From an uncultured Candidatus Saccharibacteria bacterium (GTDB lineage Bacteria > Patescibacteriota > Minisyncoccia > Phycocordibacterales > JAACPR01), in NCBI GenBank assembly GCA_964618845.1, contig CAZUCU010000001.1:468-64467 (forward strand): a stretch of 64,000 nt of DNA, read 5' to 3'. Position 1 is the stretch's first letter, and each line of letters begins with the position of its first letter. The position numbers were made by a program, and so were the translations under genes. Shown here piece after piece: positions 14,634-62,173 of the stretch. A model generated the notes under the pieces. The model saw only the letters and a list, made by a program, of their open reading frames with translations, was not told where the DNA came from and searched no databases.

Positions 14634-14640
14634 TTCGAAA

Positions 14641-14732
14641 ATTCATATTACCAAAATATCTTTTCGAAATTGTTTAGCCCAGTTTGAGATATTGTGATAG
14701 TATGTTTTCAAAGATATTTTGGTAATATGAAT
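14641..14732. promoter_or_regulatory. Perfect 23-bp inverted repeat (ATTCATATTACCAAAATATCTTT ... AAAGATATTTTGGTAATATGAAT) with a 46-nt spacer, between rpsI and grpE
   Basis: Read directly: arms at 14641-14663 and 14710-14732 are exact reverse complements. The spacer contains TTGAGA and TAGTAT promoter-like hexamers. Confidence 0.5.
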
Positions 14733-14748
14733 TATCCTTATTTAAAAT

Positions 14749-18719: not shown

Positions 18720-18914
18720 ATATTTAAAAACGGTATGAAGATTAGATACCATCTGGTTAATGGCGTTCCTCAAAGGAAAAAAGAAGAAGAAATCGAAATC
18801 CGGGGAAAAACGGAAAAATACAAAAAACCTCGGAATCGCCGAGAACGCTTTCGCCACCACCCAAGTGGCAGATTTCTTCCGCATTTTTCCTTTGTTAGGT
18901 AGCCTCCAGTTTGT
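18720..18914 (+). ncRNA. Candidate structured RNA / 5' leader: a GC-rich island relative to flanks, upstream of trpS. Identity unknown.
   Basis: Local GC well above flanks. Ends in a strong intrinsic terminator (next feature). No canonical T-box, tmRNA, SRP or RNase P motifs recognised. Confidence 0.25.
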
Positions 18915-19973: not shown

Positions 19974-20070
19974 CCGTCATTCCCAAAACTATATAGAGAA
20001 TCTACACTTAGTAAAATAATGCTTAAAAAGCACGGACCTCCGATATTGCTTCGGAGGTGACAACTCTTTT
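19974..20070 (+). repeat. Copy A of a roughly 100-bp hairpin-containing repeat element (the second copy is at 45774-45863)
   Basis: Shared blocks CGTCATTCCC, ATGCTTWWAAAG, AAGCRYGGACCYCCGATANNGCTTCGGRGGTGAC. The hairpin at 20036-20058 carries compensatory T-A to C-G changes relative to copy B. Confidence 0.55.
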
Positions 20071-31762: not shown

Positions 31763-32200
31763 TTAATTACTGTTCATCGCAATACCTTCACCTTTGTTCC
31801 AACATTTGGAAGATGAATACCAGGGTTTTAATCCTTGAGTTTCATATAAATGTTTTGCATAAGCAAGGTTTCCTTCGAGAGTATAAATGTCGTGACCTAA
31901 TTTTTTGGAATTTTCTAAATGAAAATATTCATTTATTTGCATGATCCCAACATCTAATCGATTTTTCACACCTCGTAGGGTATTTCCATTCGCATCGAAT
32001 TGATTGTATTTTGATTCGCAGAATGCGACTTTTGAAAGTATTGGTGTATTTGTGAAGTACTCTTTGACAGTTTCTTCAACTGTTTTGGGCTCTTCCAAAG
32101 CCTCGTTCTTGATGCTCTCATCAACAGTCGTTGTTGATGCGACGCTATCAAGGCTTGCGATATTTACTGAGTTAGCTCCTGTTACAGATGCTACAAGCAT
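31763..32200 (-). CDS. Lytic transglycosylase (SLT/lysozyme-like) domain protein, secreted
   Basis: AFCESKYNQF ... GIMQINE matches the SLT catalytic E-S ... G-[LI]-M-Q-I block. 145 aa. Confidence 0.55.
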   Translation of the reverse strand: MLVASVTGANSVNIASLDSVASTTTVDESIKNEALEEPKTVEETVKEYFTNTPILSKVAFCESKYNQFDANGNTLRGVKNRLDVGIMQINEYFHLENSKKLGHDIYTLEGNLAYAKHLYETQGLKPWYSSSKCWNKGEGIAMNSN

Positions 32201-32458
32201 CGCAAGTCCGATAGTAAATTGTATAATAAGCCTACTTTTAACTGTAATCTACACATGCAACCCTATATGGAGTGTAGGTTTTGAGTTATTTTTAGATTAT
32301 GGATTTTTATTCCAATTCTATTATCTTCAATCAAATTTTATTGATTCAAGCCCTGTTTACAGGCCCCAAAACTAAAGTTCGGTGTGCTTAACCGAACAGT
32401 AAATATTGTACCATATTTTGAATTATAATCAACATTACACTATTAATTTAATGTATTG

Positions 32459-32818
32459 TCAATGCTCAAAATATGGCTTAAAACCTGCCTTTTCTGCTTC
32501 TTCTTGACTTTTAAAATAAATTCTATTCTTCTCAGAAAGAGAATTTGCTCGATTTGAGTCTATTTGATAATAGTACTTTCCTCTGCTTGAAGCGACAAAT
32601 AAAAATATACTTGATGAAGTTGCAATTTTTTCTTCTTCGGTTTGTTTAGATTCACTAATTATTATAATTTTTTCTTCTTTACTCAATACTTTATTCCATA
32701 CAAAAAATATACCTATCGTTAAAAATAATAAATAAAAACCAATATCAACAAGCATTTCCATAATAATTTTTCTTTTAAAAAGTCGCTTGATTTTTATTAT
32801 TTGTTGTATTAGAATCAC
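32459..32818 (-). CDS. Hypothetical small membrane protein
   Basis: TM FYLLFLTIGIFFVW. The C-terminal NRIYFKSQEEAEKAGFKP resembles the Ada N-terminal metal-binding fold but lacks all Cys ligands. Confidence 0.4.
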   Translation of the reverse strand: MILIQQIIKIKRLFKRKIIMEMLVDIGFYLLFLTIGIFFVWNKVLSKEEKIIIISESKQTEEEKIATSSSIFLFVASSRGKYYYQIDSNRANSLSEKNRIYFKSQEEAEKAGFKPYFEH

Positions 32819-32887
32819 AGAACTTAGTATAAAACATTAAGGTTAAATTCTGATAAATAAAAGATTAAAAAATTATAAAACAAGATT

Positions 32888-33166
32888 ATGTCAAAAGTTA
32901 AAGCCGGTGGAACAGCTAAAAACCTCAGAGATTCAGGACCAAAATATTTGGGAGTAAAAATTTCTGACGGTCAAAAAGCCAAAAAAGGAAACATCATAGT
33001 AAAACAAAGAGGTACAAAATACCTTCCTGGGACAAATACAATGATCGGCAAAGATCATACTATTTTTTCAATTAAAGATGGGGTTGTTAAATTTTCAACA
33101 AAAAGAAAAACCAGATTTGATTCAAAAAAAGTTACAAGAAAATTAGTTGAAGTTATATCTAAATAA
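32888..33166 (+). CDS. rpmA: 50S ribosomal protein L27
   Basis: AGGTAKNLRDSGPKYLGVK ... KQRGTKYLPGTN signature. Confidence 0.9.
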   Translation: MSKVKAGGTAKNLRDSGPKYLGVKISDGQKAKKGNIIVKQRGTKYLPGTNTMIGKDHTIFSIKDGVVKFSTKRKTRFDSKKVTRKLVEVISK

Positions 33167-33182
33167 GTAAAGATTGATTTTT

Positions 33183-33614
33183 TTATTTTATTTCTAAAGT
33201 AAAACTTCCCTCTTTGTTTTTACTTTCCATAGGAATTTTATATATACCCACTTCTCTAATTTCTGGCATTTTAATTATTTCTTTTGCTTCTTTGTTTTCT
33301 ATAACCCGCAACACCTCGTCTAAATGAAGTTTAGAGAACATATGTCCCTTATCATTTTTTGCTACTCCAAGTTCAAAACTCTTACCATTTAATGAATCAA
33401 TAATCAAATTTAACTTTGCTATCTGGGTATTTTTTTCTTCTTCTAATGCAGACTTTTTTGTCTCAATGTTGGAAATTGCACTCTCTGAAGCTTCAATCGC
33501 TAATCCTTTTGGTAAAAGCAGGTTAAGAGCATAACCGGTCTTGACCTCTTTGATATCATCCTTTTTCCCCAAATTTAGTACATCTTTTAATAGAATTATT
33601 TTCATTCTGCTCAT
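33183..33614 (-). CDS. rplI: 50S ribosomal protein L9
   Basis: [37 protein letters not shown]-terminal domain of L9. Confidence 0.85.
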
Positions 33615-33619
33615 AGAGC

Positions 33620-34867
33620 CTACTTTAGCATTTCAATAGCTTTTTGCAACTGAATATCTATACCTTTATCAAATTTATCCTTATCAAATTTAACCTTAAA
33701 ATTAGGTTCTAATCCCCCATCCGAAATAGATTTGCCGTTTGGAGTTAACCATTTGGCAATGGTTACTTTTAAAGATGTCTCTCCATTTATACTTAATAAT
33801 TCTTGTACAGAACCCTTACCAAAGGTGGTTTCACCAACAAGTTTTGCTACGCCGTGTTCTTCTAATGCACCAGCAACTATTTCAGAAGCTGAAGCAGAAC
33901 CTCCATCAATTAAAACTACCATTTTCAAATTTTTGGTAAAAATATCATATCCTTTACTTCTAAAAATCTTTTGTTCCCCCTCATCTCCAAAATCTTCTAT
34001 TACTATTGATTTACCAACTGGTAAAAACCAGCTTGCAATATCAATTGCGCTCTCCAAAAAACCACCAGGGTTGCCTCTCAAATCTAAAATTAATTTATTT
34101 TTTTTCGATTTAATAAATTGTCTGAGAGCATTTCTAAAATCATAACTCGATGAAGAAGTAAAATTATATAAACTTATAACAAAAACATCATCAATAGTTT
34201 TTGTTTCAAGAGTAGGTATAGTTATCTTATCTCTCATAATTTCTATAAGAATTGGGTCTTTTTCTCCTTCTCTAATAATCGTAAGCCCAACCGCAGTTTT
34301 TTGGGGACCTCTTATTTTTTTTATTGCTTCATCAACAGTAATATCCATAGAGGTTTCTCCATCAATTGCAATTATTTTATCTCCGCTTTTTATGCCAGCT
34401 TTTTCTGAAGGAGAATTTTTAAGCGGAGAAACCACTGTTAAAAACCCATCTTTGAAACCGACCTCCATCCCAACCCCCTCAAATGTTCCAGAAATTGTTT
34501 CCTCAAATTGTTCACTTTCTTCTGGGGGTAAAAACACTGTGTATGGATCACCATAAGATTCAACTAATCCAGATATCGCTCCATAAATTTTGTCTTCATC
34601 CGAAATTTTTTCACCAGAGACAGAAACAAATTTTTCCTCTAAAAGATTGAAGGTTTTCCAAAATAGGTCTAAATTAATGGGTTCACTAGCACTCACCCCA
34701 TTGCTAATATGATTTTTGTTATTTCCAACAAAAAACCCGGTACCAAAAATAAGTACAAACAACATCAAACTAAAAACAATAGTGGCACTTTTTGTATAAA
34801 AATTTTTCATACGAGTATTATAGCAGAAATTTAAAGATTTGAGGATATAAAAAGATATCCCTTTCAT
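33620..34867 (-). CDS. ctpA: Carboxyl-terminal processing protease (S41 family, PDZ-containing)
   Basis: PDZ segment ([13 protein letters not shown]). S41 catalytic region (LRGNPGG ... GSASASEI). N-terminal TM. Confidence 0.85.
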
Positions 34868-34896
34868 GTTTTTGTCTTAGCATTTATAATATATTT

Positions 34897-35826
34897 ATGA
34901 TATATACTCGAAGACATAAAAATATTATTTGGATTGACTTAGATTCACCAACTAGAAATGAAGTTAGAGAACTGATTGAAAAATATGATATTGATCCAAT
35001 TGTTGCCGACGAACTTTTGATTCCGACTCTTAGATCAAGAGTTGATTTGCACGATAATTATATTTATTTAATTTTACATTTTCCTCAAAAAATAAAAGGT
35101 CATAAATACGAAAAAAATTTTAACAAAGAAACACAAGAAGTAGATTTTATTATTGGAAAAAATTTTATAATTACTGCTCGATATGGAGCAATTGATGCGC
35201 TTTTGGAATTTTCAAAAATTTTTGAAGCTAATTCTATTTTGGACAGAAGCAATATTGGAAAACATGCAGGATATGTATTTTATTATATGATTAGAAATAT
35301 TTATAAATCTATGTATGAGGAGATTCAAAATATGAGAGATAAAATCTCTGAATATGAAGAGAAGGTTTTTTCTGGGCAAGAAAGAGAGATGGTTCAAAGC
35401 CTCTCCCAAATGAATCGATTACTTTTGTATTTTAAAGAATCCCTTTTGTTTCATAAAGAAATTTTAATTTCTTTTGAAGAGGCGGGGAAAAAAAATTTTG
35501 AACCAGAATTTACTTACTATTTGCGAGCAGTATTGGGAGAATATTATAAAGTTCAAAATATTCTTGAAAGTTCGAGGGATTATCTTTCAGAAATAAGAAA
35601 TACCAACGACTCATTACTTTCAACTAAACAAAATGAATTTATGAAAATGATAGCAATAATTACTTTGCTAACCTTCCCCACCACTTTAATTTCAAATATA
35701 TTTAGTATGAATACTGAAAGTACACCAATTGTCGGTAAAATGAATGATTTTGTGATTATTGTTAGCATGATGTTTTTATCAGTTGCTATTCTATTTCTCT
35801 TTTTCAAGAAGAAGAGATGGTTTTAG
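34897..35826 (+). CDS. CorA-like divalent cation transporter
   Basis: Cytoplasmic alpha/beta domain followed by two C-terminal TM helices, with an MN motif (FSMN) at the first TM end, reminiscent of CorA GMN. Confidence 0.55.
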   Translation: MIYTRRHKNIIWIDLDSPTRNEVRELIEKYDIDPIVADELLIPTLRSRVDLHDNYIYLILHFPQKIKGHKYEKNFNKETQEVDFIIGKNFIITARYGAIDALLEFSKIFEANSILDRSNIGKHAGYVFYYMIRNIYKSMYEEIQNMRDKISEYEEKVFSGQEREMVQSLSQMNRLLLYFKESLLFHKEILISFEEAGKKNFEPEFTYYLRAVLGEYYKVQNILESSRDYLSEIRNTNDSLLSTKQNEFMKMIAIITLLTFPTTLISNIFSMNTESTPIVGKMNDFVIIVSMMFLSVAILFLFFKKKRWF

Positions 35827-35834
35827 ATTAAAAA

Positions 35835-37247
35835 ATGTTAAAGATAAAAAATACATTAACTGGAAAAATTGAGAATTTTGAGCCCTTAAAAAGGACATTT
35901 TGGGGCAAATCCAAAATCGGAATGTATAATTGTGGTCCAACTGTTTATAGTAAAGCTCATATTGGGAATTTGCGTGCATATATTTTTGCAGATTTAATAA
36001 GAAGAACTCTGGAATTTAATGGGTATAGAGTTAAACAGGTGATAAATATTACTGATGTTGGACACTTAACTTCAAATTCAGATGAGGGAGAAGATAAAAT
36101 TGAAGAACAAGCAAAAAAAGAGAATTTAAAAGCAAAAGAAATAACCCAAAAATATACTGACCTTTTTTTTTCTGATTTAGATAGATTAAATATTGATAAA
36201 AGCAAGATTTTATTTCCCAAGGCCACAGAACACATAAAAGAACAAATTGATATAATAAAAAAATTAGAAAAAAAAGGTTTTACTTATAAAATTTCTGATG
36301 GTATCTATTTTGATACTCTAAAATTTAAAGATTATGGAAAACTTGGAAAGATAGATATCAAAGGATTAGAGGGAGGTGCAAGAATTGAAGTAAATAAAGA
36401 AAAAAGAAATTCAACTGATTTTGCTCTTTGGAAATTTACTCCACGACAAAACTCGAGGCAAGGTGGCAGACAGCAAGAATGGAAATCTCCTTGGGGTATA
36501 GGTTTCCCTGGGTGGCACTTAGAGTGTTCTGCTATGAGCATGAAATATTTGGGAGAGACTTTTGATATTCACACGGGAGGAATTGATCATATTAACACTC
36601 ATCATAATAATGAAATTGCTCAATCGGAAAGCGCTACTGGAAAAGCTTTAGCAAAGTATTGGATGCATGTAAATCATATTCAAATAAACGGAGAAAAAAT
36701 TTCTAAATCAATAGGTAATGTGGTATATCTTGATGAACTTGAATCAAGGGGATATACTTCAATGAGTTATAAATATCTTTTACTTACCGCTCACTACTCT
36801 ACTCTTTTGAATTACACTGAGGAAAATTTAAGGGCTTCTCAAAAAGCTTTGTTTAGGATTTATAGTTTTCTTTTAGGAGTTACCAGTGATCAATTATCAG
36901 AGATCAGTGAAGATTATTATAAAAAATTTAAAGAAGCAATTAATGATGATTTAAATACGGCGAAAGCCATTGCAATTATTTTTGAATTACTATCAGATAA
37001 AGGAATCTCAAATCAAGATAAAAAAACAACAATATTGAAGTTTAATAAAGTTTTAAATTTGGGGTTTGATAATCCAATAATTTTAAAAACAGAAATACCA
37101 GAAGAAGTTTTAAACCTTGCAAATGAAAGACTAAAAGCGAGAAAAAATAAAGATTTTGTAGAATCAGATAAATTGAGAGAAAAAATAAAACATTTAGGTT
37201 TTGAAATAAAAGATGTCCCCGAAGGCTTTAAATTAGATAGAATATAA
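35835..37247 (+). CDS. cysS: Cysteine--tRNA ligase
   Basis: MYNCGPTVYSKAHIGNLRAY (HIGH) and KISKS. Zn-binding Cys. 470 aa. Confidence 0.9.
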   Translation: MLKIKNTLTGKIENFEPLKRTFWGKSKIGMYNCGPTVYSKAHIGNLRAYIFADLIRRTLEFNGYRVKQVINITDVGHLTSNSDEGEDKIEEQAKKENLKAKEITQKYTDLFFSDLDRLNIDKSKILFPKATEHIKEQIDIIKKLEKKGFTYKISDGIYFDTLKFKDYGKLGKIDIKGLEGGARIEVNKEKRNSTDFALWKFTPRQNSRQGGRQQEWKSPWGIGFPGWHLECSAMSMKYLGETFDIHTGGIDHINTHHNNEIAQSESATGKALAKYWMHVNHIQINGEKISKSIGNVVYLDELESRGYTSMSYKYLLLTAHYSTLLNYTEENLRASQKALFRIYSFLLGVTSDQLSEISEDYYKKFKEAINDDLNTAKAIAIIFELLSDKGISNQDKKTTILKFNKVLNLGFDNPIILKTEIPEEVLNLANERLKARKNKDFVESDKLREKIKHLGFEIKDVPEGFKLDRI

Positions 37248-37341
37248 AGACTATTTTTATCTTGAGATTTAATACATAAAATAACAAATAAAACAATGTG
37301 TTTTGATAAATTTGTCAAATTTGATTTTTCCCCAATTCATC

Positions 37342-37383
37342 CACTTTTCTTAAACTTTTCACTTCTCGCGGTTCTCTTCTCGC
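37342..37383. repeat. GAGAAGC-family motif cluster upstream of dnaB (reverse orientation relative to the copy upstream of dnaK)
   Basis: The reverse complement reads AGCGAGAAGAGAACCGCGAGAAGTGAAAAGTTTAAGAAAAGTGG. It shares GAGAAGTGAAAAGT with 15370-15385. Confidence 0.6.
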
Positions 37384-37401
37384 TATGATAACATTACATT
37401 T

Positions 37402-38763
37402 ATGAATTCATTAAAAATCCCACCACAAAGTCAAGAAAGTGAGAAAGCTTTAATTGGAGCAATTTTGCTTCGACCAGAAGCAATTTATGAAATTATGGAT
37501 ATGATTTCTCCCGAAGCATTTTATGCCACCAAAAATAAACTAATTTTCCAAACAATGCTTGAACTGATCAGTAAAGGAATAGAGATAGATTCTGTTTCTG
37601 TCTCCGAAAAACTTCGAGAAAAAGGAAATTTTGATAAAACAGGAGGAAAATCATATATAGCAGAACTTTTGGACTCTGTTCCCTCTTCCTCTAATATTAA
37701 ACATTATGCAAATATAATTTTAAAGAAAAAATTAATGCGAGATCTTTTAGAAGTAGCTGATCATTTATCTTTTCTGGGTTATGAAGAATCAAAAGAAATT
37801 GAAGAAATATTAGATGAAGCCGAAAAAAAAGTTTTCTCTGTTACAAATTTAAAAACTACAAAAAATTATATTGAACTCAAAAAAGCTCTTGGTGAAGCAT
37901 TTGAAAGATTGGATAGACTACATAAATCAAAAGAAGATTTAAGAGGTATACCTACTGGTTTTGCTGGGCTTGATAATTTACTCTCTGGATTTCAAAAATC
38001 AGATTTAATAATTTTGGCAGCTCGTCCCTCTATGGGAAAAACCTCTCTGGCTTTAGATATTTCAAGAAAAGTTGCATTAAATTATAAAATTCCTGTAATA
38101 TTTTTTTCTCTTGAAATGAGTCACGACCAACTGGTAGATAGGGTTTTGGCAGCTGAATCTGGTGTTAATTCTTTTAATATTAGACGAGGGAAGGGACTTA
38201 AAGAACAGGATTTTGAAAATATTGGTAATGCGATATCACGACTTTCTGAAGCACCGTTTTTTATAGAAGATACCTCTGGATTAAATATTATTCAAATGAA
38301 ATCAATGATTCGAAGAATTATTTCTGAAAAATTTAAAGATGGGGATAGAGGTTTAGTAGTTGTGGATTATTTACAACTTATGACACCAACAAATTCTCGA
38401 ATTGATAATACCGTAGCTCAAATTACAGAAATTTCTAGATCACTAAAAGGTATGGCAAAAGAATTTAGAATTCCCGTTATTGCTCTTTCACAACTTTCAA
38501 GAGCAGTAGAGTCAAGAGGTGGAAAACCTCGATTATCAGATCTGAGAGATTCTGGCGCAATCGAACAAGATGCCGACGTTGTTATGTTTATTCATCGAGA
38601 AGATAAATATAACGAAGAATCTAATAAGCCAAATATTGCGCAGATTCTAATTGAAAAACACAGAAATGGACCAACGGGTCGAGTTGATCTCTATTTTGAC
38701 GAAAAGAAAACAACCTTTGTTGATATAGATAAAACTCACAGTAATCTTCTTGAAAATTTTTAA
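37402..38763 (+). CDS. dnaB: Replicative DNA helicase DnaB
   Basis: SQESEKALIGAILL N-terminal domain. Walker A (ARPSMGKTS). RecA-like C-terminal domain. 453 aa. Confidence 0.9.
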   Translation: MNSLKIPPQSQESEKALIGAILLRPEAIYEIMDMISPEAFYATKNKLIFQTMLELISKGIEIDSVSVSEKLREKGNFDKTGGKSYIAELLDSVPSSSNIKHYANIILKKKLMRDLLEVADHLSFLGYEESKEIEEILDEAEKKVFSVTNLKTTKNYIELKKALGEAFERLDRLHKSKEDLRGIPTGFAGLDNLLSGFQKSDLIILAARPSMGKTSLALDISRKVALNYKIPVIFFSLEMSHDQLVDRVLAAESGVNSFNIRRGKGLKEQDFENIGNAISRLSEAPFFIEDTSGLNIIQMKSMIRRIISEKFKDGDRGLVVVDYLQLMTPTNSRIDNTVAQITEISRSLKGMAKEFRIPVIALSQLSRAVESRGGKPRLSDLRDSGAIEQDADVVMFIHREDKYNEESNKPNIAQILIEKHRNGPTGRVDLYFDEKKTTFVDIDKTHSNLLENF

Positions 38764-38772
38764 ATTTAAAAT

Positions 38773-39381
38773 ATGAATATTATTGACGAACTAACAGAAT
38801 TATTTAAGGAATTTCCCGGGATTGGTCCGCGTCAGGCCCGAAGATTTGTTTACTATTTACTTAGAAAAAACGGGGATTACATAAACAAAATAGTCACCCT
38901 CATTCCAGAACTGCGAAAAAAAACTAAAACTTGTAATGAGTGTTTTCGATTTTTTTCTTCCCCGTCTTCTAAATGTAGTATTTGTGAAAATAAAAACCGC
39001 AATTCAAAAATTTTGATGGTTGTTGCTCGAGATTCTGATCTTGAAAATATAGAAAAAACAGATACTTTTAATGGGTATTATTTTGTACTTGGTGGACTTT
39101 TGCCAGTACTTGAGAAAGATAGCAAAAAGCATATTAGACTTAATGAACTTTTAAAACTAATTTCTCAAAAAAAAGATCTTGGGGAAATAATTCTGGCCTT
39201 TCCAGTAAATCCCGAAGGAGATAACACTGCTCAATTTCTTAAAAAAGAAATTGAACAACAAATTCGAAATTCGAAATCCGAAATCCGAATTTCTACATTG
39301 GGAAGAGGACTTTCTACAGGATTAGAACTTGAATATTCAGACAAAGAAACAATCAAAAATGCACTACAAAATAGAAACTAA
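38773..39381 (+). CDS. recR: Recombination protein RecR
   Basis: FPGIGPRQARRFVYYL helix-hairpin-helix. Cys4 zinc finger. Toprim domain. The C-terminus contains repeat-derived IRNSKSEIRIS. Confidence 0.85.
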   Translation: MNIIDELTELFKEFPGIGPRQARRFVYYLLRKNGDYINKIVTLIPELRKKTKTCNECFRFFSSPSSKCSICENKNRNSKILMVVARDSDLENIEKTDTFNGYYFVLGGLLPVLEKDSKKHIRLNELLKLISQKKDLGEIILAFPVNPEGDNTAQFLKKEIEQQIRNSKSEIRISTLGRGLSTGLELEYSDKETIKNALQNRN

Positions 39382-39466
39382 AGAACAAATATAAAATCCG
39401 AAATACGAAATCAGAAATTCAAAACAAATCCGAAATTAGAAATACGAAATTCCAAACACGAGTTTT
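39260..39466. repeat. Two arrays of GAAATYC / CGAAAT heptamer repeats, one inside the recR 3' coding region and one downstream
   Basis: AAATTCGAAATTCGAAATCCGAAATCCGAATTTC (39260-39294) and AAAATCCGAAATACGAAATCAGAAATTCAAAACAAATCCGAAATTAGAAATACGAAATTCC (39394-39466). Confidence 0.8.
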
Positions 39467-39506
39467 AAATTTCTAATTTTGTGCTTAGTGCTTCGAATTT
39501 AATTAT

Positions 39507-39896
39507 CTAGATCTTAACGATCTTAACTTTCATAAAATCTTGTCTGTGTCCCCTTTTTATAAAATATCGAGATTTTGCTTTGTATTTGATAACAACAATT
39601 TTTTTATCCTTTCCTTGTTCTACTAACTCCCCCTCTACAGATGCACCTTTAACATACGGGGTACCAATTTTGATTTCTTTTCCATCATCTATTAATAAAA
39701 CATTATCAAATTTTACTTTATTACCTCCCTTGATTTCACCACCTAATTTTGCAATTTTAATAATTTGACCGACAAAAACAACCATTTGTTTGCCTCCCGT
39801 CTCCACAACCGCATACTCCTTTGCCAAGTTCGTGCTCTTGGCGACAGCGGATTTGTCTTTTATTTTCACTTTCTCTGTTTTAGTTTCTTTTTTCAT
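39507..39896 (-). CDS. rplU: 50S ribosomal protein L21 (with a Lys-rich N-terminal extension)
   Basis: YAVVETGGKQ ... KIVVIKYKAKSRYFIKRGHRQ signature. Confidence 0.85.
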   Translation of the reverse strand: MKKETKTEKVKIKDKSAVAKSTNLAKEYAVVETGGKQMVVFVGQIIKIAKLGGEIKGGNKVKFDNVLLIDDGKEIKIGTPYVKGASVEGELVEQGKDKKIVVIKYKAKSRYFIKRGHRQDFMKVKIVKI

Positions 39897-39940
39897 AAGT
39901 CCTACGATTTTACACTATTTTTAATGTTTTGCAAGAATTT

Positions 39941-41014
39941 TTACCCCTCTACTTTTACACTTTCTTCAATTTGAAGTGGGTCTAATTTTACTTCTCCGTC
40001 TGTAATTCGCACGATATCTTTATCGATTTTTTTAAATTCTTTAGCTGACAAATTATATTGATTTACAACTGTCCCCAAATTTTTTCCAAGCTTATCATGA
40101 TAATCTTCATAGGACTTTAAATGTCTTTGAAGCTCTCCTACATATTTTCTAATCTTTTGAGCTGATTCCTCGATCTTGTAGGCCTTAAAACCAAAAAGAA
40201 CTGATTGTAAATATGCCAAAAAAGTTGTCGGCGAAACTATAAAAACTTTTTTTTCATTGTAAGAATAATCGATTAGACTTCGCGAATTTATAGTTGTTGC
40301 ACCAACTGCTCCTGTAAGCAATTCATAATAAATTCCCTCAGCTGGAATAAACATAAAAGCAAAAGAAAGAGTTCCCTCATTCGGTCTAATATATTTGGCA
40401 GTTTCATCAATTCTTCTTTTTAAATCATTTTTGAAATCTCTTTCAAGTTCTGCTCTTCTAACTTCATCACTTTCATTTACTAAACGAGAATAATTATCCA
40501 GAGAAAATTTAGCATCAATTGGGATAATTCCCTCTTTGGTTTTAATTATTGCATCAACCACATCACCATTTTTGAACATATATTGAAGATCATAAGTAGT
40601 TGGATCCAAGGCGTTTTGTAAAACAAGCTCCAAAGCTGCTTCTCCCCAATTCCCTCTTTGTTTTTGATGTTTCAAAACTTTTTCTAAATTGGAAAGTTGC
40701 TCAGCAATTGTAAACACTTGTTTAGTTGATTGGGAGACTTCTGTTACCCCTTTTGTAACATTTAAAAGTTGCTCAGTCATTTGTTTGTTTATGTCTTGTA
40801 TAAGTTGCTGAGATCTTGCAAATTGTTCAGAAGAAACCTGAGCTACATTTTTTTGAGAATCTTGAATAGACCTATTTACTTCATTCATCTGAGTAAGTAA
40901 CATATTTAAACTCTTTTCATCTTGAGAATCCTTTTTCTTGGTAATCAAAAAAACAACCGCTATAACATTTATAACAAGTAAAATAAGCACGATAACAAGT
41001 AATGTTTCTACCAT
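39941..41014 (-). CDS. rmuC: DNA recombination protein RmuC
   Basis: N-terminal TM, a long coiled coil, and the conserved C-terminal RmuC block (GNWGEAALELVL ... PIDAKFSLD ... FMFIPAEGIYYE). Confidence 0.8.
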   Translation of the reverse strand: MVETLLVIVLILLVINVIAVVFLITKKKDSQDEKSLNMLLTQMNEVNRSIQDSQKNVAQVSSEQFARSQQLIQDINKQMTEQLLNVTKGVTEVSQSTKQVFTIAEQLSNLEKVLKHQKQRGNWGEAALELVLQNALDPTTYDLQYMFKNGDVVDAIIKTKEGIIPIDAKFSLDNYSRLVNESDEVRRAELERDFKNDLKRRIDETAKYIRPNEGTLSFAFMFIPAEGIYYELLTGAVGATTINSRSLIDYSYNEKKVFIVSPTTFLAYLQSVLFGFKAYKIEESAQKIRKYVGELQRHLKSYEDYHDKLGKNLGTVVNQYNLSAKEFKKIDKDIVRITDGEVKLDPLQIEESVKVEG

Positions 41015-43013: not shown

Positions 43014-43211
43014 ATAGATATTATATCAAATTTCAAAATTGAAATATGTAGAATTTTTCCCAAAATCTGTTATTATTCTTTTCACAAACAACGGAGGAAA
43101 ACTTGAAGAATAAATGTTGTCCGAGAGTGTTCGAGTTAGATTTTTGGCGAAGTCATATCGCCAAAAAGCAACGAGTTTCGAGGAAACATTTATTATTTAA
43201 GTTTTCCGTAG

Positions 43212-43283
43212 GGCCCTATCGTCTAACGGTTAGGACAGCGCCTTCTCAAGGCGTAAATCCGGGTTCGATTCCCGGTAGGGTCA
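43212..43283 (+). tRNA. tRNA-Glu (anticodon CUC)
   Basis: Manual cloverleaf: acceptor GGCCCTA / TAGGGTC (one G-U pair), D-arm GTCT-AACGGTTA-GGAC, anticodon stem GCGCC / GGCGT with loop TTCTCAA (anticodon CTC), T-arm CCGGG-TTCGATT-CCCGG, discriminator A. Resembles canonical tRNA-Glu blocks (TCGTCTA..GG..AGGAC, GGTTCGAWTCC). Confidence 0.8.
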
Positions 43284-43949: not shown

Positions 43950-44049
43950 ACATCGTAGATATTATATGATTGATAAATTCAATTCTTCTAAACTTTCTTT
44001 AATACAATCTCTATATCCCAAAAGTTCGGAAAGCCACACTTTGGGGTCA

Positions 44050-44151
44050 CCGCGTCAAACGCGGTTTCAGAACCGTATCAAACGGTATGGAACCACCAAA
44101 TTAACAAACCCCGTTTGACGGGGTCGCAGTGAAGGAGCCCGTCAGACGGGC
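44050..44151. repeat. Cluster of four small GC-stem hairpins (CCGCG-TCAAA-CGCGG, ACCGT-ATCAA-ACGGT, CCCCG-TTTGA-CGGGG, GCCCG-TCAGA-CGGGC) abutting the IS element
   Basis: Seen directly. A near-identical copy of the last hairpin occurs at 53239-53253 in the opposite orientation. Confidence 0.6.
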
Positions 44152-44196
44152 ACGTTCTCATCGCGTCAAAAATTCTCTAAAAAAGTTGATCGTTTT

Positions 44197-45078
44197 CTAA
44201 TCAATAGCTTGGAAACACCCAGACAATAATTGCATCGGAGTTTTGAGCTCAATTCCCATGTGCAATCTTTGCTCGTTATAGTATTTCAAATATTTCTCTA
44301 AAGCACAATTAATAACAGAAACGTTTCTTGGAAGAGTGTCTAAACACTCTTCTTGAAGTGTTCTGTTAAATCTTTCAATGTGTGCATTGTCATTAGGTTT
44401 TCCAATTCTAGTGTATCTATGGTTTCTCTTCACTCTGTCATAAAACCATTTTCCAAATTCACTTCCATGATCTGTTTGTATCATTTCAAAATTAAAAACT
44501 GATTGTCTCTCTGCTTCATTCAAAAACTCAACACTTATTGAAGAGTTTAATCTTTCATACGCTTTCGCAAAAGTGTTTCTAGAATAAACATCAATTAAGG
44601 TGAGAACATATATCCTAGTCTTCGGTCCTGTCATAAGGTGTATAGTGTCAATTTGAACCAAAGAACCTGGCTTTATTGGATATGGTCTATCAACAGGAGG
44701 ATGATATCTCTTCCAAGGAGATCTCTTTTTCATAAGTCCATGTCTATCAATTGTTCTTCTAACAGAGTTCAAAGAAACTTGGATATTTTCATTTAAAAGA
44801 TGTTGATGAACAACTTCACTTGTTCTCTTTGTGTCTAATCTGATTTTAATAATTCTTTTAACTACATTTTCTTCTAATTCCTTAGGATGATGATGTGGTC
44901 GTGAAGATTTGGTTGGTATTGGGTGAATACCGAGTTTTTCAGCTTTCTTTACCCATTTACTAATTGTTCCTGGACTTACGCCATATCTTCTAGCAACCGT
45001 TCTAACACCATATCCAATTCGAACCATAGTCGCAGCATCTCTACGAACTTTTGGCATGTTTGGATTATTTGTATACAT
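44197..45078 (-). CDS. IS481-type DDE transposase (rve integrase core)
   Basis: HTH (RYGVSPGTISKWVKK). The rve core spans LVQIDTIHL ... LIDVYSR ... IQTDHGSEF ... HIERFNRTLQEE. Confidence 0.85.
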   Translation of the reverse strand: MYTNNPNMPKVRRDAATMVRIGYGVRTVARRYGVSPGTISKWVKKAEKLGIHPIPTKSSRPHHHPKELEENVVKRIIKIRLDTKRTSEVVHQHLLNENIQVSLNSVRRTIDRHGLMKKRSPWKRYHPPVDRPYPIKPGSLVQIDTIHLMTGPKTRIYVLTLIDVYSRNTFAKAYERLNSSISVEFLNEAERQSVFNFEMIQTDHGSEFGKWFYDRVKRNHRYTRIGKPNDNAHIERFNRTLQEECLDTLPRNVSVINCALEKYLKYYNEQRLHMGIELKTPMQLLSGCFQAID

Positions 45079-45123
45079 AATGCTTGGATATTACTTTTTA
45101 ATGGAAGTGTTTCCAAGCTATTG
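44202..45123 (-). mobile_element. IS481-family insertion sequence (single-ORF DDE transposase with an N-terminal HTH) bounded by 17-bp terminal inverted repeats CAATAGCTTGGAAACAC
   Basis: Inverted repeats at 44202-44218 and 45107-45123 are exact reverse complements. The transposase ORF sits between them. Confidence 0.75.
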
Positions 45124-45654: not shown

Positions 45655-45773
45655 GCGTCAAGCTTAAATTCGAAAACAGTTTACACACAAAACGCACGAC
45701 CTTCGGGTACGGCGTTTTCTTTTTACATAACCACTGCAAATGTCCGACATTTGCAGTAAATGTACTTCATTTT

Positions 45774-45863
45774 CGTCATTCCCGTGAAGACGGGAATTCA
45801 TGCTTTTAAAGATATTAATAAAGCGTGGACCCCCGATACGGCTTCGGGGGTGACGATTATTTT
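45774..45863 (+). repeat. Copy B of the roughly 100-bp hairpin-containing repeat element (copy A at 19974-20070). Contains hairpins ATTCCCGT-GAAG-ACGGGAAT and CCCCCGA-loop-TCGGGGG.
   Basis: Direct alignment by eye with copy A. See findings. Confidence 0.55.
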
Positions 45864-45909
45864 GTTTGTTATTTTGTTGTGACTAGTACAGAGATGATAC
45901 TACAAAACA

Positions 45910-52571: not shown

Positions 52572-53006
52572 TTAAATTGCTCCTATTTCCCCCAATTTTT
52601 CTGCCATTTGATCAGCATTCTTGGTAACTTGAAATTTGTACTTTTCCCAACTATCTTCATCCCAAACTTCAATTCGATTGTATACACCAGCAAAAACAAC
52701 TTTAGTTTTTATGTTTGCAAATTTTTTTAAATTTTCTGGAATTAATATTCTTCCAACGGAATCAACATTTATTTCTGTTGCTCCTGACAAGAAAAAACGA
52801 TTAAATCCTCTTTTATCTGCTTGTCCCATTCCAAGCTCTCCAACTTTGGATGCAATTTTTTCCCATCCTTTAACAGGATAGATAAAGAGACAATTATCTA
52901 ATCCTTGTGTAATGATTAATCTTTTTCCAAGCACACTTCTAAACTTACTAGGAAGTGAAATCCTTTTTTTTTCATCAAGTGTGTGTTTGTACTCTCCGAT
53001 TAACAT
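52572..53006 (-). CDS. mraZ: Transcriptional regulator MraZ
   Basis: MLIGEYKHTLDEKKRISLPSKFR. Duplicated SpoVT/AbrB-like halves. 144 aa. Confidence 0.85.
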   Translation of the reverse strand: MLIGEYKHTLDEKKRISLPSKFRSVLGKRLIITQGLDNCLFIYPVKGWEKIASKVGELGMGQADKRGFNRFFLSGATEINVDSVGRILIPENLKKFANIKTKVVFAGVYNRIEVWDEDSWEKYKFQVTKNADQMAEKLGEIGAI

Positions 53007-53160
53007 TTCATATATTTACCACTTTATCCCACTTGATTAATATTATAACCCACTATTTAACATTTTGCACAAATAGTTATCCACAGCATAAGACGAAGCG
53101 CAAAATAAAAAATTCAAAATTCAAAATAAAATTTATTTTCTTTTTTTAGTGAGAACTGAT

Positions 53161-53321
53161 CTTCCCAAAATAAAATTAAATATCTTTCGAGAACCGTGTT
53201 TGAGCGGGAGGATGATTATATTTTTTATAAAGCATATACCCCGTCTGACGGGGTGTAACGAAAATGGCAATCGTGTCTAGAGCGAGTTTTCGAGAAAGAT
53301 ATATAATTTTATTTTGGGAGG
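53161..53321. mobile_element. MITE-like element: about 34-bp imperfect terminal inverted repeats (CTTCCCAAAATAAAATTAAATATCTTTCGAGAAC) flanking about 90 bp that contain a CCCCGTCTGACGGGG hairpin
   Basis: Arms at 53161-53194 and 53286-53321 match in about 30 of 34 positions as reverse complements. The internal hairpin belongs to the CCCGT-loop-ACGGG family. Confidence 0.45.
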
Positions 53322-53322
53322 A

Positions 53323-54798
53323 TTATTCGAGTCGTGGTTTCATTAAAGGAAAGAGTTGTGTTTCTCTTATGGGTTTATCTATCAAAAAAGCAAAGAGCCT
53401 TTCTCCTACTCCAAAACCAAAATTAGGTGGCATTCCATATTCAAGCATTTCAACAAATTCATTGTCACTCATCATTGCTTCTTTGTCTCCTTCCTTTATT
53501 AATTTATTTTGAATATCAAAACGATTTTTTTGATCAATAGGATCATTTAACTCTGCGTGGGCTCTACCAATTTCACTTCCAGCAATTATAATCTGAAACA
53601 TTTCTGTCTTTCTATTATCTTTTTCGTTTTCTTTTGAAAGTGGAGCAACGAGTTTTGGATGATTTACCAAAAAAACAGGACCTGAAATGTTTTTTCTACA
53701 ATATTTCCAAAGAGCATCGGTCATTCTTTCTTTGTTTTTTCCTTCAAATTTTATTTCCAATTTTTCAAGAACTTTTTCCATTTCATTTTCATTTGCTTCC
53801 AAAACATCAACTCCTGTTTGTTTTTTAACTTCATCAACATAATCAATTTCTTTCCACTCAGAAGCCAAATCAAATTTATGACCTCTTGTTTTAAACTTAG
53901 TTTTTCCAAAAACATCTTCCGCAATTTTTATATATAAATCTCTAACAAGCTTTTTCCCCTCTTCCAAATTCATATAGGAAGCATAAAATTCCATATTAGT
54001 AAATTCTTGTAAGTGTTCTGCGCTCCCCCCTTCATTTCTAAAAATCCTTCCTATTTCAAAAGTTCTTGGAAATCCAGCTGCCATTAATCTTTTTTGCCAA
54101 AGTTCACCAACAGAAATTCGAAGATATATATCTATATCAAAATCATTATGATGAGTTTGAAACGGTCTTGCCTCTGCTCCTCCTGTTGTTATTTCCAAAT
54201 ATGGAGTCTCTACTTCTAAAAAATTTTTATTTAGCAAAAACTCTCTCATTGTTTGCCAAAATTTTGCTTTTTTGTAGAAAATCTTTTTTGCGTCATCATC
54301 AAACAATAAATCTAAATATCTTTTTCTAAATCTTTCATCTTCGTCTTTTATTCCATAAAAACTATCGGGAATTGGAAGAAGGGATTTGGTCAAAATTCTC
54401 CAAGATACAACATCCAGACTTTCTTGCCCAGATTTTGTAATAAAAGGTTTTCCTTTTACTTCAATAAAATCTCCAATGTCTACAGTGTCTTTAAAAAGAA
54501 TAAAGGCATCTTCTATTTCTTTATCAAAATAAGAAATATTGTTTTCTTTTTTTAAAACTATTTGAAATTTAGAGGTACCATCAAATATATCGACAAATAT
54601 TATCGCCCCTTGTCCACGTTGAGACATTATTCTACCAACAACTATTAGCTCTTGATTTTGTAATTTATCAAAATAATCAACAATCTCTTTGAGATTGTGG
54701 GTTTTTAATGACTTACTTGGATAAACATTTATCCCCAAAGTTTCTAATTTTTTTCTTTTTTTGAGCCTTATGGCTCGTAATTCTTCATGTGATGCCAT
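53323..54798 (-). CDS. lysS: Lysine--tRNA ligase (class II)
   Basis: N-terminal OB fold. Motif 2 FEIGRIFRNEG. Motif 3 region. 491 aa. Confidence 0.9.
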   Translation of the reverse strand: MASHEELRAIRLKKRKKLETLGINVYPSKSLKTHNLKEIVDYFDKLQNQELIVVGRIMSQRGQGAIIFVDIFDGTSKFQIVLKKENNISYFDKEIEDAFILFKDTVDIGDFIEVKGKPFITKSGQESLDVVSWRILTKSLLPIPDSFYGIKDEDERFRKRYLDLLFDDDAKKIFYKKAKFWQTMREFLLNKNFLEVETPYLEITTGGAEARPFQTHHNDFDIDIYLRISVGELWQKRLMAAGFPRTFEIGRIFRNEGGSAEHLQEFTNMEFYASYMNLEEGKKLVRDLYIKIAEDVFGKTKFKTRGHKFDLASEWKEIDYVDEVKKQTGVDVLEANENEMEKVLEKLEIKFEGKNKERMTDALWKYCRKNISGPVFLVNHPKLVAPLSKENEKDNRKTEMFQIIIAGSEIGRAHAELNDPIDQKNRFDIQNKLIKEGDKEAMMSDNEFVEMLEYGMPPNFGFGVGERLFAFLIDKPIRETQLFPLMKPRLE

Positions 54799-54813: not shown

Positions 54814-55278
54814 TTATTTTACATCAATAATCTTATATTCAATTTTTCCTCTTGCCGTTTTAAATTCAAAAGTCTCCCCCTTTTTCTTTCCAAGAATAGA
54901 CTGGCCAAGAGGAGATTGGTTAGAGATTTTATTTTGAGTAATGTCAGCTTCTTCTGAACCCACAATAACAAAAGTTTGCTTCTCTGAAGAGGGGGTTCTG
55001 AGGACAACAACTTGTGAACCAATTTCTACAGTATTACTTTTTTTATGCTCAACAATTTCTGAGCTTTTCAAAATATTTTCTATTTGAGAAATTCGAAATT
55101 CTATTTGCGCTTGTCTATCACGGGCTTCATGATACTCAGCATTTTCTGATAAATCACCCATACCTTTTGCGACTTGCAATTGTTCTGCAATTTCTCTTCT
55201 TTTATTTGTCTGAAGTTCTGCTAATTCAGCTTGCAATTCTTCAAATTTTTCTTTTGTTAAATATTCTTTTTCCTCCAT
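54814..55278 (-). CDS. greA: Transcription elongation factor GreA
   Basis: Coiled-coil N-terminus with DLSENAEYHEARD. FKBP-like C-terminus. 154 aa. Confidence 0.9.
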   Translation of the reverse strand: MEEKEYLTKEKFEELQAELAELQTNKRREIAEQLQVAKGMGDLSENAEYHEARDRQAQIEFRISQIENILKSSEIVEHKKSNTVEIGSQVVVLRTPSSEKQTFVIVGSEEADITQNKISNQSPLGQSILGKKKGETFEFKTARGKIEYKIIDVK

Positions 55279-60727: not shown

Positions 60728-61321
60728 TTATCTTTCCCATACAATATGTCCGTTTATATCATGTTTTTCGAAAGTTTTTAAAATATCTGCACAAAATTTT
60801 ATAAGTTCTTTATTTTTTTCAGTTTTGGCCAATTCATAAAGTCGTATAAACATTTTCTTTCCTGTTTCTGTCTGTTTAAAATTTTTCTTAATAAAATTAT
60901 GTTGAGAACATAAAGTTTGGCCGTTTTCAATTGTTGCTTCTCCACCGAAATCTTTAGATTTAATATGATCAATATGCAATTCAACTCCTTCTTTTTTACC
61001 TCTGCCACAAATAACACATTTATATCCGTCTCTCTTCAGAATTTCTGTTTTTTGAGAATATGTAAAATCTTCTAATTTCCTTAAGTGAGCTTTTTTAGGA
61101 TCATACTTATAAATTCCTTTCGCTACTTTAACCAAAAAACCATTTTGTGATAGTTTTCTAATCGCTCGATCTGGATCACGAAAAATCTTACCTGTCCGTT
61201 TCTTATATGTTGAAACTACCCAATCAACAACTTCGGGATGTTTTATATCCCTTTTAGGATTTGATTTAAAAAATTCGATTATTAAATCTTGTTGAATTAA
61301 ATTATTTTTGTCTTTTTTCAT
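60728..61321 (-). CDS. HNH-family endonuclease: candidate restriction endonuclease of a Type II R-M pair
   Basis: CVICGRGKKEGVELHIDHIKSKDFGG ... NGQTLCSQHN HNH motif with flanking Cys. Directly downstream of a DNA methyltransferase. Confidence 0.7.
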   Translation of the reverse strand: MKKDKNNLIQQDLIIEFFKSNPKRDIKHPEVVDWVVSTYKKRTGKIFRDPDRAIRKLSQNGFLVKVAKGIYKYDPKKAHLRKLEDFTYSQKTEILKRDGYKCVICGRGKKEGVELHIDHIKSKDFGGEATIENGQTLCSQHNFIKKNFKQTETGKKMFIRLYELAKTEKNKELIKFCADILKTFEKHDINGHIVWER

Positions 61322-61324
61322 AAA

Positions 61325-62173
61325 TTATTTTATTAAAATTTCTTGATTAATTTTTGCTTCTTCTTTTAAACGTGTTATAGCAATATCACAATATTTTCTA
61401 TCAATATCAATTCCAATTCCAATTCTATTATGTAAATATGAAGCAATAAGAGTTGAACCACTTCCCAAAAACGGATCCAAAATTGTGTCCCTTTCAAAAC
61501 TAAATAATTTTATACATCGTCTCGGCAACTCCACAGGAAAAGGTGACGGATGCCCACCCGCTCCTTTTTTATTTTGTCCGGGAAAAGTCCAGATACCATA
61601 TGTCCAATCTAAAAATTCTTTTTTAGTAATATCATTTATTCTACTGCCACCAGTTTTTTTCCAACTATCTTTATATAAAACCAATATTAATTCAACAGGA
61701 GCTATAACATAAGGAGCAGAAGCTGACATATAAGAACCCCAAGCAGTTCGACGAGAAATATTTCCTTCATTCCAAATAATAGTTGAATGATATTTCCAAC
61801 CAATATCTTTTGCAATTTTTGTTATATCTGCACCAACAGATTTTTGACCACCTTTATTTTTATCTAAAGGAATATTTAATAATAATCGCCCCTCGATTTT
61901 TGCCAAATCAAAACATTTTTTTATCCATTTTTTAGTAAACTCCAAATATTCTTCATATGAAAGATTATCATCATTAGAATTGTAATGAATATCGACATTG
62001 TAGGGTGGTGAAGTAACAATAAGATCAATCGATTCATTGGGAATAGATTTTATAGTTAAAATATCTTCATTGAAAATTTTAATATTTTTAGTCTCAAAAT
62101 AAGGCCTTCGAGTTAAAATTTTTGAATTTTTTATATTTTTTTTTACTATTTGCATTGATTGGTATTCTAACAT
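61325..62173 (-). CDS. DNA methyltransferase, beta-class amino-MTase (N4-cytosine or N6-adenine)
   Basis: Motif IV SPPY (IVTSPPYNV) precedes motif I DPFLGSGST, the circular permutation typical of beta-group N4C/N6A methyltransferases. 282 aa. Confidence 0.8.
   Translation of the reverse strand: MLEYQSMQIVKKNIKNSKILTRRPYFETKNIKIFNEDILTIKSIPNESIDLIVTSPPYNVDIHYNSNDDNLSYEEYLEFTKKWIKKCFDLAKIEGRLLLNIPLDKNKGGQKSVGADITKIAKDIGWKYHSTIIWNEGNISRRTAWGSYMSASAPYVIAPVELILVLYKDSWKKTGGSRINDITKKEFLDWTYGIWTFPGQNKKGAGGHPSPFPVELPRRCIKLFSFERDTILDPFLGSGSTLIASYLHNRIGIGIDIDRKYCDIAITRLKEEAKINQEILIK

Follow-up and report, generated by a model that had tools for sequence, protein, structure and literature searches.

A long inverted repeat after lysS in a Patescibacteria genome, tentatively read as a REP/BIME- or Correia-like mosaic palindrome

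Introduction

Patescibacteria have tiny, densely packed genomes. The stretch of DNA analysed here (64 kb, hereafter the window) belongs to a small Patescibacteria (CPR) genome with a G+C content of 30% and contains about 3.7 kb of intergenic DNA. The best relatives of its LysS come from MAGs of the Paceibacteria/Nomurabacteria type. Directly after lysS, in the 316-nt spacer that separates this gene from mraZ, lies a long inverted repeat, referred to below as E1. The question raised by this locus is what such a repeat represents. The original prediction offered two answers, namely a MITE-like non-autonomous mobile element, or a very long RNA hairpin that terminates lysS transcription and insulates the promoter of the cell-division operon. 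The gene context given there is correct by ORF positions: the - strand carries, in this order, greA (54814-55278), lysS (53323-54798), the spacer, mraZ (52572-53006), rsmH, ftsL, and ftsI.

The best explanation, held with slightly less than even confidence, is that E1 is a species-specific, non-coding mosaic palindrome of the kind represented by REP/BIME, NIME/Correia, or BOX elements that has replaced the lysS terminator. The term MITE-like applies to it only in a loose sense.

Anatomy of the inverted repeat

A repeat search placed the arms of E1 at 53159-53193 (the 5' arm on the + strand) and 53289-53323. Each arm is 35 nt long, 31 of the 35 positions are complementary (89%), and 95 nt lie between them; the predicted 30 of 34 matches around approximately 90 bp were essentially right. 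The four positions that are not Watson-Crick pairs are T53162.G53320, A53179.A53303, and the tandem G.A/A.G at 53189-90/53292-93. The tandem arises from two copies of the 9-mer TTTCGAGAA, found in direct orientation on the + strand at the inner ends of the left (53185-53193) and right (53288-53296) arms, whose CGAG segments oppose each other in the helix; it forms on the + strand only. The terminal base of the right arm, 53323, lies inside the lysS stop codon (TTA on the + strand, TAA on the - strand). On the + strand, the helix can be extended to 53153-53158/53324-53330, covering the stop codon (53323-25) and the last two codons of lysS. Outside the left end stands ...GAGAACTG, after which the element opens with ATCTTCCC, while the right end closes with GGGAGGAT and is followed by TATTCGAG; there is no direct repeat at the ends. 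In the 64-kb window, the arm pairs solely with its own partner, and 100 shuffles gave an expectation of 0 matches.

Several smaller structures occupy the interior. The 31-mer AAATATCTTTCGAGAACCGTGTTTGAGCGGG (53178-53208) comprises the inner part of the left arm, the junction, and a small hairpin at 53194-53207. The hairpin that had been predicted inside the arms, CCCCGTCTGACGGGG, is located at 53238-54 and belongs to an apical GC-rich hairpin, TATACCCCGT CTG ACGGGGTGTA, with a full stem at 53235-53257. This apical hairpin is part of a module, M1, found on the - strand at 53217-53268 with the layout CAUUUUCGU-hairpin-AUGCUUUAUAAA and homologous to 45768-45810 (+ strand) of the window. A further hairpin, CGAAAAU...GUUUUCG, spans 53259-53292; its 3' strand is in competition with the innermost part of the long helix. 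The remaining spacer (53007-53158, read on the - strand) consists of AT-rich filler, in which degenerate copies of the E1 arm occur at 53101-53143, and of a conserved mraZ promoter block.

The spacer in relatives

The order lysS-then-mraZ is widely conserved; in 80 relatives, the two genes stand between 132 nt and more than 3 kb apart. E1 is present in the window species and in strain SRR8925747. It is absent from L011, L092, L093, L104, and L105, relatives whose LysS is 76-78% identical or whose MraZ is 90-91% identical to that of the window. Relatives without the insertion, which the original prediction had suggested looking for, exist. In the nearest species-level relative, L011 (LysS 76%, MraZ 79%), the spacer holds only a textbook terminator, AAAAAAGCCGCGCCCGAAGGGCGCGGCTTTTTTATTTTT, followed by the mraZ block. 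The spacers of L092 and L093 contain an inserted ORF (237 and 188 aa, respectively) and a terminator, and those of L104 and L105, whose MraZ is the one 90-91% identical, carry yet another filler. Searches with E1 by blastn and nhmmer against approximately 1 Mb of the relatives' lysS neighbourhoods returned nothing significant. Because the relatives' spacers cannot be aligned outside the mraZ block, the empty site is not reconstructable at the nucleotide level.

The inserted ORFs lie at 4518-5231 in L092 and 4561-5127 in L093, with no Pfam hit on record. By eye, the one in L092 is much more G+C-rich than its AT-rich flanks, which suggests foreign DNA in the same hot spot that E1 occupies. Runs of 100 N after lysS in L066 and L077 were considered as well and set aside as what look like ordinary scaffold gaps.

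The promoter side of the spacer behaves differently. The mraZ block, TGTGGAWAACTATT...AGTGGGTTATAATATTAATCAAGTGGGATAAAGTGGTAAA (53016-53090), is near-invariant between the window and L011, L092, L104, L105, and L106, even though the proteins are just 76-91% identical. It contains a -10 element, TATAAT, at 53042-47 (coordinates on the + strand), and three copies of an MraZ-box-like AGTGG(G) at 53018-23, 53028-33, and 53049-54, spaced by 10 and 21 nt. A phasing of 10-11 nt between AGTGG(G) repeats is the spacing expected for MraZ operators, and the boxes around TATAAT are consistent with MraZ autoregulation. No recognisable Shine-Dalgarno sequence precedes mraZ. Since spacer contents differ among relatives while the mraZ block stays, E1 is an addition made in one lineage to a spacer with fast turnover, upstream of a strongly constrained promoter.

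Hairpin modules in the centre

The second strain, SRR8925747, allows the element to be compared at short evolutionary distance: DNA identity with the window is 94.6% over lysS and 99.5% over the ribosomal protein operon. Its copy of E1 was rebuilt from two contigs with a 27-nt overlap. Over the compared 144 nt (53180-53323), there are 18 strain differences, and 13 of them fall inside the apical hairpin. Without the apex, the compared sequence is approximately 96% identical, which is near the background level. The apical hairpin has in effect been replaced between the strains, reading UAUACCCCGU-CUG-ACGGGGUGUA on the + strand of the window and AUUUCCGC-CUUC-GCGGGAAU in the second strain. Where the window has the A.A mismatch 53179/53303, the second strain has a proper pair.

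Both versions of the apex have counterparts elsewhere in the window. The second strain's apical module and its flanks match 45768-45810, the identity over 44 nt being 84% (E=3e-7). For the apical hairpin of the window itself, ACCCCGTCTGACGGGGT, the counterpart is the similar ACCCCGTTTGACGGGGT at 44108-24. The centre of E1 is therefore read as a mosaic of hairpin modules from other spacers that are swapped between copies, because each strain's apical hairpin resembles a different copy in the window. A second module, M2 (45815-45863), matches 20023-20070 (E=5e-6), and its stem is kept through a U-A to C-G change. Modules of E1 and its paralogues thus recur at other intergenic loci (45768-45810, 44108-24, and approximately 20.0 kb), as REP/BIME elements would have it. 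The recurring parts of E1 are its inner and central modules, not its termini.

M1 and M2 together form a hairpin cassette, a paralogue of the E1 centre, at 45760-45870 on the + strand, with a second + strand copy at approximately 19975-20070. Its sequence contains CGUCAUUCCC..., then AAAGCRYGGACCYCCGAUA..GCUUCGGRGGUGAC, after which comes a U-rich tail. Each of the two copies is preceded by a + strand gene. In E1, M1 is in the lysS-sense orientation, and the other two copies are likewise sense to their upstream genes. No Rfam family matches the cassette; it might serve as a terminator, or the two paralogues might each encode a small RNA. At 44040-44160, next to an insertion sequence, stands an array of 4-5 small GC hairpins of a single type (ACCGCGTCAAACGCGGT, ACCGTATCAAACGGT, ACCCCGTTTGACGGGGT, and GCCCGTCAGACGGGC). 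Nowhere in the window is the G+C content higher (0.35), and the array has no Rfam match either.

Strain variation is also seen at 60728-62173, where an N6/N4 DNA methyltransferase and an HNH endonuclease form a pair that is present or absent depending on the sample within one population (L099 vs L100). This segment is a strain-variable, restriction-modification-like island.

Other long-stem hairpins

Two more spacers of the window are occupied by branched long-stem hairpins, both on the + strand. E2 (14637-14736) is 100 nt long with 27-nt arms that are 96% complementary, and it extends from 4 nt after the rpsI stop codon to 12 nt before grpE. E3 (43096-43207) is 112 nt long with 23-nt arms that are 91% complementary, and it ends 4 nt before the tRNA-Glu gene at 43212. 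The outer arms of both differ from those of E1, and the inner ends and junctions resemble it. E2 and E1 have in common AAAUAUCUUU(U)CGA(G)AA and GUUUUC..AAAGAUAU, while E3 and E1 share CGAGA(A/G)..GUGUUYGAG and CGAGUUU(U)CGAG(A/G)AA. When 54 intergenic strands were ranked against the E1 junctions, E2 and E3 came first or tied first, and the similarity of E1 to E3 reached z=4.0 (p ~0.01). Even so, E1 is only weakly homologous to E2 and E3, with p values of approximately 0.01-0.04 that are uncorrected for multiple tests, and the kinship of the three junctions is suggestive, not proof.

The 3' arm of E2 contains TGGTAATAT, which is like an extended -10 box. E2 does not differ between the window and the second strain, and it is no CIRCE element; it could control or promote grpE-dnaK-dnaJ. 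The centre of E3 holds a hairpin made of an A-tract, a GC stem, and a U-tract, and tRNA-Glu(CUC) follows at 43212-43283, so that E3 would be either a pre-tRNA leader or the carrier of a tRNA promoter.

A better-supported family was found in two relatives. L080 has three elements within 13 kb (1217-1321, 10463-10579, and 13016-13170) and L015 has one (9216-9319), all placed right after co-oriented genes; in one case (L080_2), the arm takes in the last codons and the stop codon of the upstream gene. The strands of their three-way junction, CUUUCGCAGG / CGAGAAGUUCGC / GAUAGAUU, are conserved between unrelated loci of the two genomes (z 6-16). The outer parts of the arms are dissimilar, except for part of the arm common to L080_2 and L015. 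Hairpin A carries the loop G(A/U)CG, and two L080 copies with identical flanks have the strands of hairpin B exchanged (GGGCU-AGCA-AGCCC vs AGCCC-AGCA-GGGCU). These elements have no Rfam match. MAFFT alignments of E1, E2, and E3, or of the L080 family, each with few and divergent members, were structurally inconsistent.

Inverted repeats were also noticed in or near coding DNA. The repeat at 18771-18894 (24-nt arms, 88% complementary, 76 nt apart) lies in what is apparently a coding 3' end and has a z of -3.5 to -4.9. In L062, a 27-nt inverted repeat (89% complementary) at 9050-9146 lies inside rsmH, and one of its arms, read by eye, seems to encode the conserved SLEDKIVKHF. It is possibly an in-frame palindromic insertion similar to the Rickettsia palindromic elements.

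Assembly breaks inside the element

Short-read assemblies break at fixed points within E1. On the lysS side, Logan contigs end at 53179/80 in 7 independent assemblies, the second strain included. On the mraZ side, five of six start at 53206/7, again including the second strain, and the sixth starts at 53148. The sequences of the broken contigs are identical to the window. The same samples assemble through E2 and E3, and consequently the hairpin by itself is not the cause of the breaks. Inversion between the E1 arms and deletion between the 9-nt direct repeats were both rejected as causes, because the breakpoints expected from them (53178 or 53193) differ from those observed. Since independent assemblies break at both ends of the 31-mer 53178-53208, it is suggested that this 31-mer has a paralogue with other flanks elsewhere in the genome; within the window it has no second copy. 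The effect matters for the reconstruction of CPR genomes from metagenomes.

Another fixed break was seen just past the right end of the window, where four Logan contigs from different samples (L099-L102) share the same start base in an A-rich stretch, 66 nt upstream of a PemK-family toxin gene.

Origin and mobility

The copies of a MITE have common termini, with target duplications on either side. A classic MITE, that is, a non-autonomous transposon mobilised by cut and paste through recognition of its terminal inverted repeats, would agree with several features of E1: long terminal inverted repeats, a length of approximately 165 bp, the intergenic position, the presence/absence polymorphism among relatives, and the occurrence of an insertion sequence in the window. 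The original prediction pointed to AAATT / TTTTA as possible target-site duplications. These are not found at the ends of the element, and GAGAACTG and TATTCGAG, which flank it, have no direct repeat in common. Further copies of the arm, which the same prediction proposed to look for, did not appear in the window, nor in viral, metagenome, or phage collections. Exact patterns for the arm and the 31-mer core in viral and metagenome contigs and blastn against phages gave 0 matches, and these are weak negatives, as the element's own locus was not returned and the collections evidently do not contain this organism. The only insertion sequence of the window, an IS481-like element at 44202-45123 with an rve/HTH transposase at 44197-45078 (- strand), has perfect 17-bp terminal repeats, CAATAGCTTGGAAACAC, at 44202-18 and 45107-23, which are unrelated to the E1 arms. 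Its left repeat overlaps the annotated end of the transposase ORF. Moreover, the conserved parts of E1 are inner and not terminal, and the termini of E2 and E3 differ from those of E1. A classic MITE is consequently regarded as highly improbable. Of the earlier MITE reading, the inverted repeat, the lineage-specific distribution, and the recurrence of parts have stood, while a target-site duplication and a related insertion sequence have not been found in the window, nor have arm copies there or in the scanned collections. Because no target duplication and no shared termini were seen and the ends of the insertion sequence are unrelated, E1 is not filed as a MITE in the strict sense, as judged from these sequence comparisons.

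An alternative without any movement is that the palindrome arose in situ. In this scenario, an ordinary lysS terminator, a sense-oriented hairpin cassette of the M1-M2 type, would have been enlarged by replication template switching at its hairpin, one flank being copied in inverted orientation to the other side; the same process would keep the arms alike, and the other long hairpins would have arisen independently. The outer arms are indeed locus-specific at all three elements of the window, and largely so in L080/L015, and neither target duplications nor a matching transposase accompany them. The scenario also agrees with the arms that enter the last codons of the upstream gene in E1 and L080_2, the degenerate direct arm copies that adjoin E1 at 53101-53143, the shared sense orientation of all three M1 copies, and the 53179/53303 mismatch that is properly paired in the second strain. 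However, it leaves unaccounted for the inner-junction motifs common to E1, E2, and E3, the conserved junction cores of L080/L015 at unrelated loci in two genomes (z 6-16), and the branching of the assembly graph at the 31-mer. On balance, formation in place is considered unlikely.

The mosaic palindrome is the preferred reading. E1 consists of two parts: a long helix, with an outer sequence seen at no other locus, and a centre assembled from GC-rich hairpin modules of other intergenic regions. The modules are exchanged between copies, each strain's apical hairpin resembling a different one. Recombination or gene conversion between modules at dispersed sites would have spread or remodelled E1, instead of cut-and-paste transposition with fixed terminal repeats, and a single-strand-specific enzyme might assist the process. 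Against this explanation stand the lack of a second full copy of E1 in the window and in the scanned collections, and of a transposase, a target duplication, or a nucleotide-level empty site tied to its mobility. The assembly breaks at the 31-mer suggest copies outside the window.

Folding and strand asymmetry

E1 folds with -67.3 kcal/mol on the + strand (z -7.4) and -51.4 kcal/mol on the - strand (z -7.2), and no shuffled sequence matched either value. For the second strain, the corresponding energies are -57.4 and -48.8 kcal/mol. The + strand, which is antisense to lysS and mraZ, is thus better by 9-16 kcal/mol in both strains. It also has more G.U pairs, with 6 in the window and 9 in the second strain, compared with 1 and 3 on the - strand. 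The consensus fold of the two strains reaches -48.6 kcal/mol on the + strand and -35.65 kcal/mol on the - strand, and 7 strain differences are compatible with G.U pairing on the + strand; as the fold was picked on the same two sequences, this count is biased, and independent informative substitutions are few. A Watson-Crick compensatory change at 53260/53291, from G-C in the window to A-T in the second strain, supports the hairpin 53259-92 on either strand. The local GC/AT skew predicts better pairing on the - strand, opposite to the bias of E1. The displayed strand also folds better in E2, E3, and the L080/L015 elements, yet there it is the sense strand of the neighbouring genes.

On the scale of the whole window, the GC skew changes sign at approximately 32000-40000, from +0.13-0.21 to between -0.09 and -0.24. 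The inspected ORFs lie on the + strand at 1-3 kb, 11-17 kb, and near 20 kb, and mostly on the - strand at 49-64 kb, apparently converging on the same region, which is possibly the replication terminus.

The asymmetry could be taken to indicate a structured RNA on the + strand, antisense to lysS and mraZ: a rod of approximately 175-185 nt, closed by a long helix, partly open in the middle, and variable in its apical hairpin, whether 6S-like, antisense, or a processing RNA. Beyond the more stable fold, the additional G.U pairs, the consensus fold, and the G.U-compatible differences, this idea draws on the tandem G.A that forms on the + strand only, on a bias that runs counter to the local skew, and on a size and rod shape that recall 6S RNA, in which the apical part is the most variable region. 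However, no + strand promoter was found upstream, where the lone 9/12 match lies partly inside the arm and sites are fewer than expected by chance, and no terminator was found downstream, where the + strand runs into antisense lysS. The RNA has no Rfam match to 6S or other families and is absent at this locus in relatives, and the occurrence of the same architecture in E2 and E3 is unlike a single-copy housekeeping RNA. The bias of the consensus fold and the scarcity of informative substitutions weaken the case further. Such an RNA, of any of the three types, is quite improbable.

Rfam searches of the whole window at the gathering score recovered tRNA-Glu only. In E-value mode, the spacer matched microRNA-precursor models only, with 25.7 bits against a 160-bit threshold, and these matches were discounted because any long hairpin hits them. 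The same mode applied to the M1-M2 region, the 43950-44200 array, and the relatives' elements gave sub-threshold noise. Four other candidates were discarded: a retron (no reverse transcriptase), an integron attC site (no R'/R'' boxes and no cassette context), a self-cleaving ribozyme (no Rfam ribozyme hit), and a small + strand peptide (GGGAGG-AUG, MIIFFIKH...), which has no spacing between ribosome-binding motif and start and whose C-terminal half is wholly different in the second strain.

A broader, doubtful proposal is that E1, E2, and E3, together with the better-supported L080/L015 elements, constitute an undescribed Patescibacteria class of structured elements read from a single strand as RNA or ssDNA. 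In members of such a class, the closing helix would be mostly locus-specific and would often start at or within the upstream stop codon. The interior would contain conserved junction strands (the tandem G.A CGAG/CGAG in E1, and CUUUCGCAGG / CGAGAAGUUCGC / GAUAGAUU in L080) and one to three GC hairpins whose shape is kept while their sequence is swapped between copies. The process that makes or moves them would involve inverted copying of the target flank, and their function would be read from one strand.

Effect on the lysS transcript

The proposal that E1 terminates lysS and insulates the cell-division promoter fares unevenly. In its favour, E1 occupies the position at which the nearest relative has its terminator, and it probably took over, or at least displaced, the lysS terminator. 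The M1 hairpin as read on the - strand (ACCCCGTCAGACGGGGT and ATATGCTTTA) was the single site of the spacer that a consensus scan flagged as terminator-like. Its U-tract is poor and its tail is interrupted (UAUAUGCUUUAU). The second strain has a weak version on the - strand, in which 4 G-C pairs adjoin a C.A mismatch, and in both strains the antisense strand forms the stronger hairpin. No U-tract follows the stem of the long helix. The terminator and insulator reading is weakened because the + strand pairs better and no U-tract follows the long stem, and the + strand bias likewise disfavours the role in the lysS transcript that the mosaic palindrome reading includes.

An effect of E1 on the end of the lysS transcript is nevertheless plausible by analogy with REP, BOX, and Correia elements. 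The M1 hairpin, lysS-sense and with a U-rich tail, would be the only terminator-like signal left at the transcript end. On read-through, the helix of approximately 170 nt might act as a double-stranded barrier or as an RNase III-type processing site upstream of the mraZ promoter. The full helix would then stand approximately 150 nt ahead of the mraZ start, where it could block exonucleases or serve as a substrate for a double-strand-specific RNase.

Comparison with known systems

Long-stem hairpins of 100-170 nt take up three of the window's spacers, and shared GC-hairpin modules take up several others. Should these be selfish repeats, palindromic mosaics are tolerated and exchanged in even the most reduced bacterial genomes, here adjoining the promoter of the cell-division operon. 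If they are read as RNA or ssDNA, they would represent a new class of structured elements in Patescibacteria, for which, to our knowledge, almost no non-coding RNAs have been described.

E1 is similar to 6S RNA in its size of approximately 180 nt, its rod-like form, its long closing helix, its less paired centre, and its variable apex. In contrast to 6S RNA, it has no Rfam 6S match and no promoter or terminator, is not conserved, and has two look-alikes in 64 kb. The comparison with a Rho-independent terminator is supported by the position of the nearest relative's lysS terminator and by a GC-rich hairpin followed by a U-rich stretch in the lysS-sense orientation, whereas the long helix without a U-tract, the interrupted tail (UAUAUGCUUUAU), and the weaker hairpin on the sense strand set E1 apart. 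With the Correia, RUP, and ERIC MITEs, E1 has in common a length of 100-170 bp, long inverted termini, an intergenic position, the ability to fold as RNA, and possibly the carriage or replacement of expression signals. Unlike these MITEs, it has unique, unflanked termini, and its shared parts are internal.

The REP/BIME elements of Enterobacteria and the NIME/dRS3-Correia elements of Neisseria are intergenic, non-coding, palindromic mosaics of short hairpin modules found at many loci. They often lie directly after stop codons, form stable stem-loops at mRNA 3' ends, and are lineage-specific and variable between strains. E1 differs from REP/BIME in that no sequence similarity was found, and neither a conserved REP tetranucleotide nor, among the window ORFs scanned, a RAYT gene came to light. 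Its outer helix is locus-specific instead of being built from identical REP units, and three long hairpins and a few modules occur in 64 kb. It resembles both systems in being an intergenic, palindromic mosaic of recurring hairpin modules that follows a stop codon and is restricted to one lineage.
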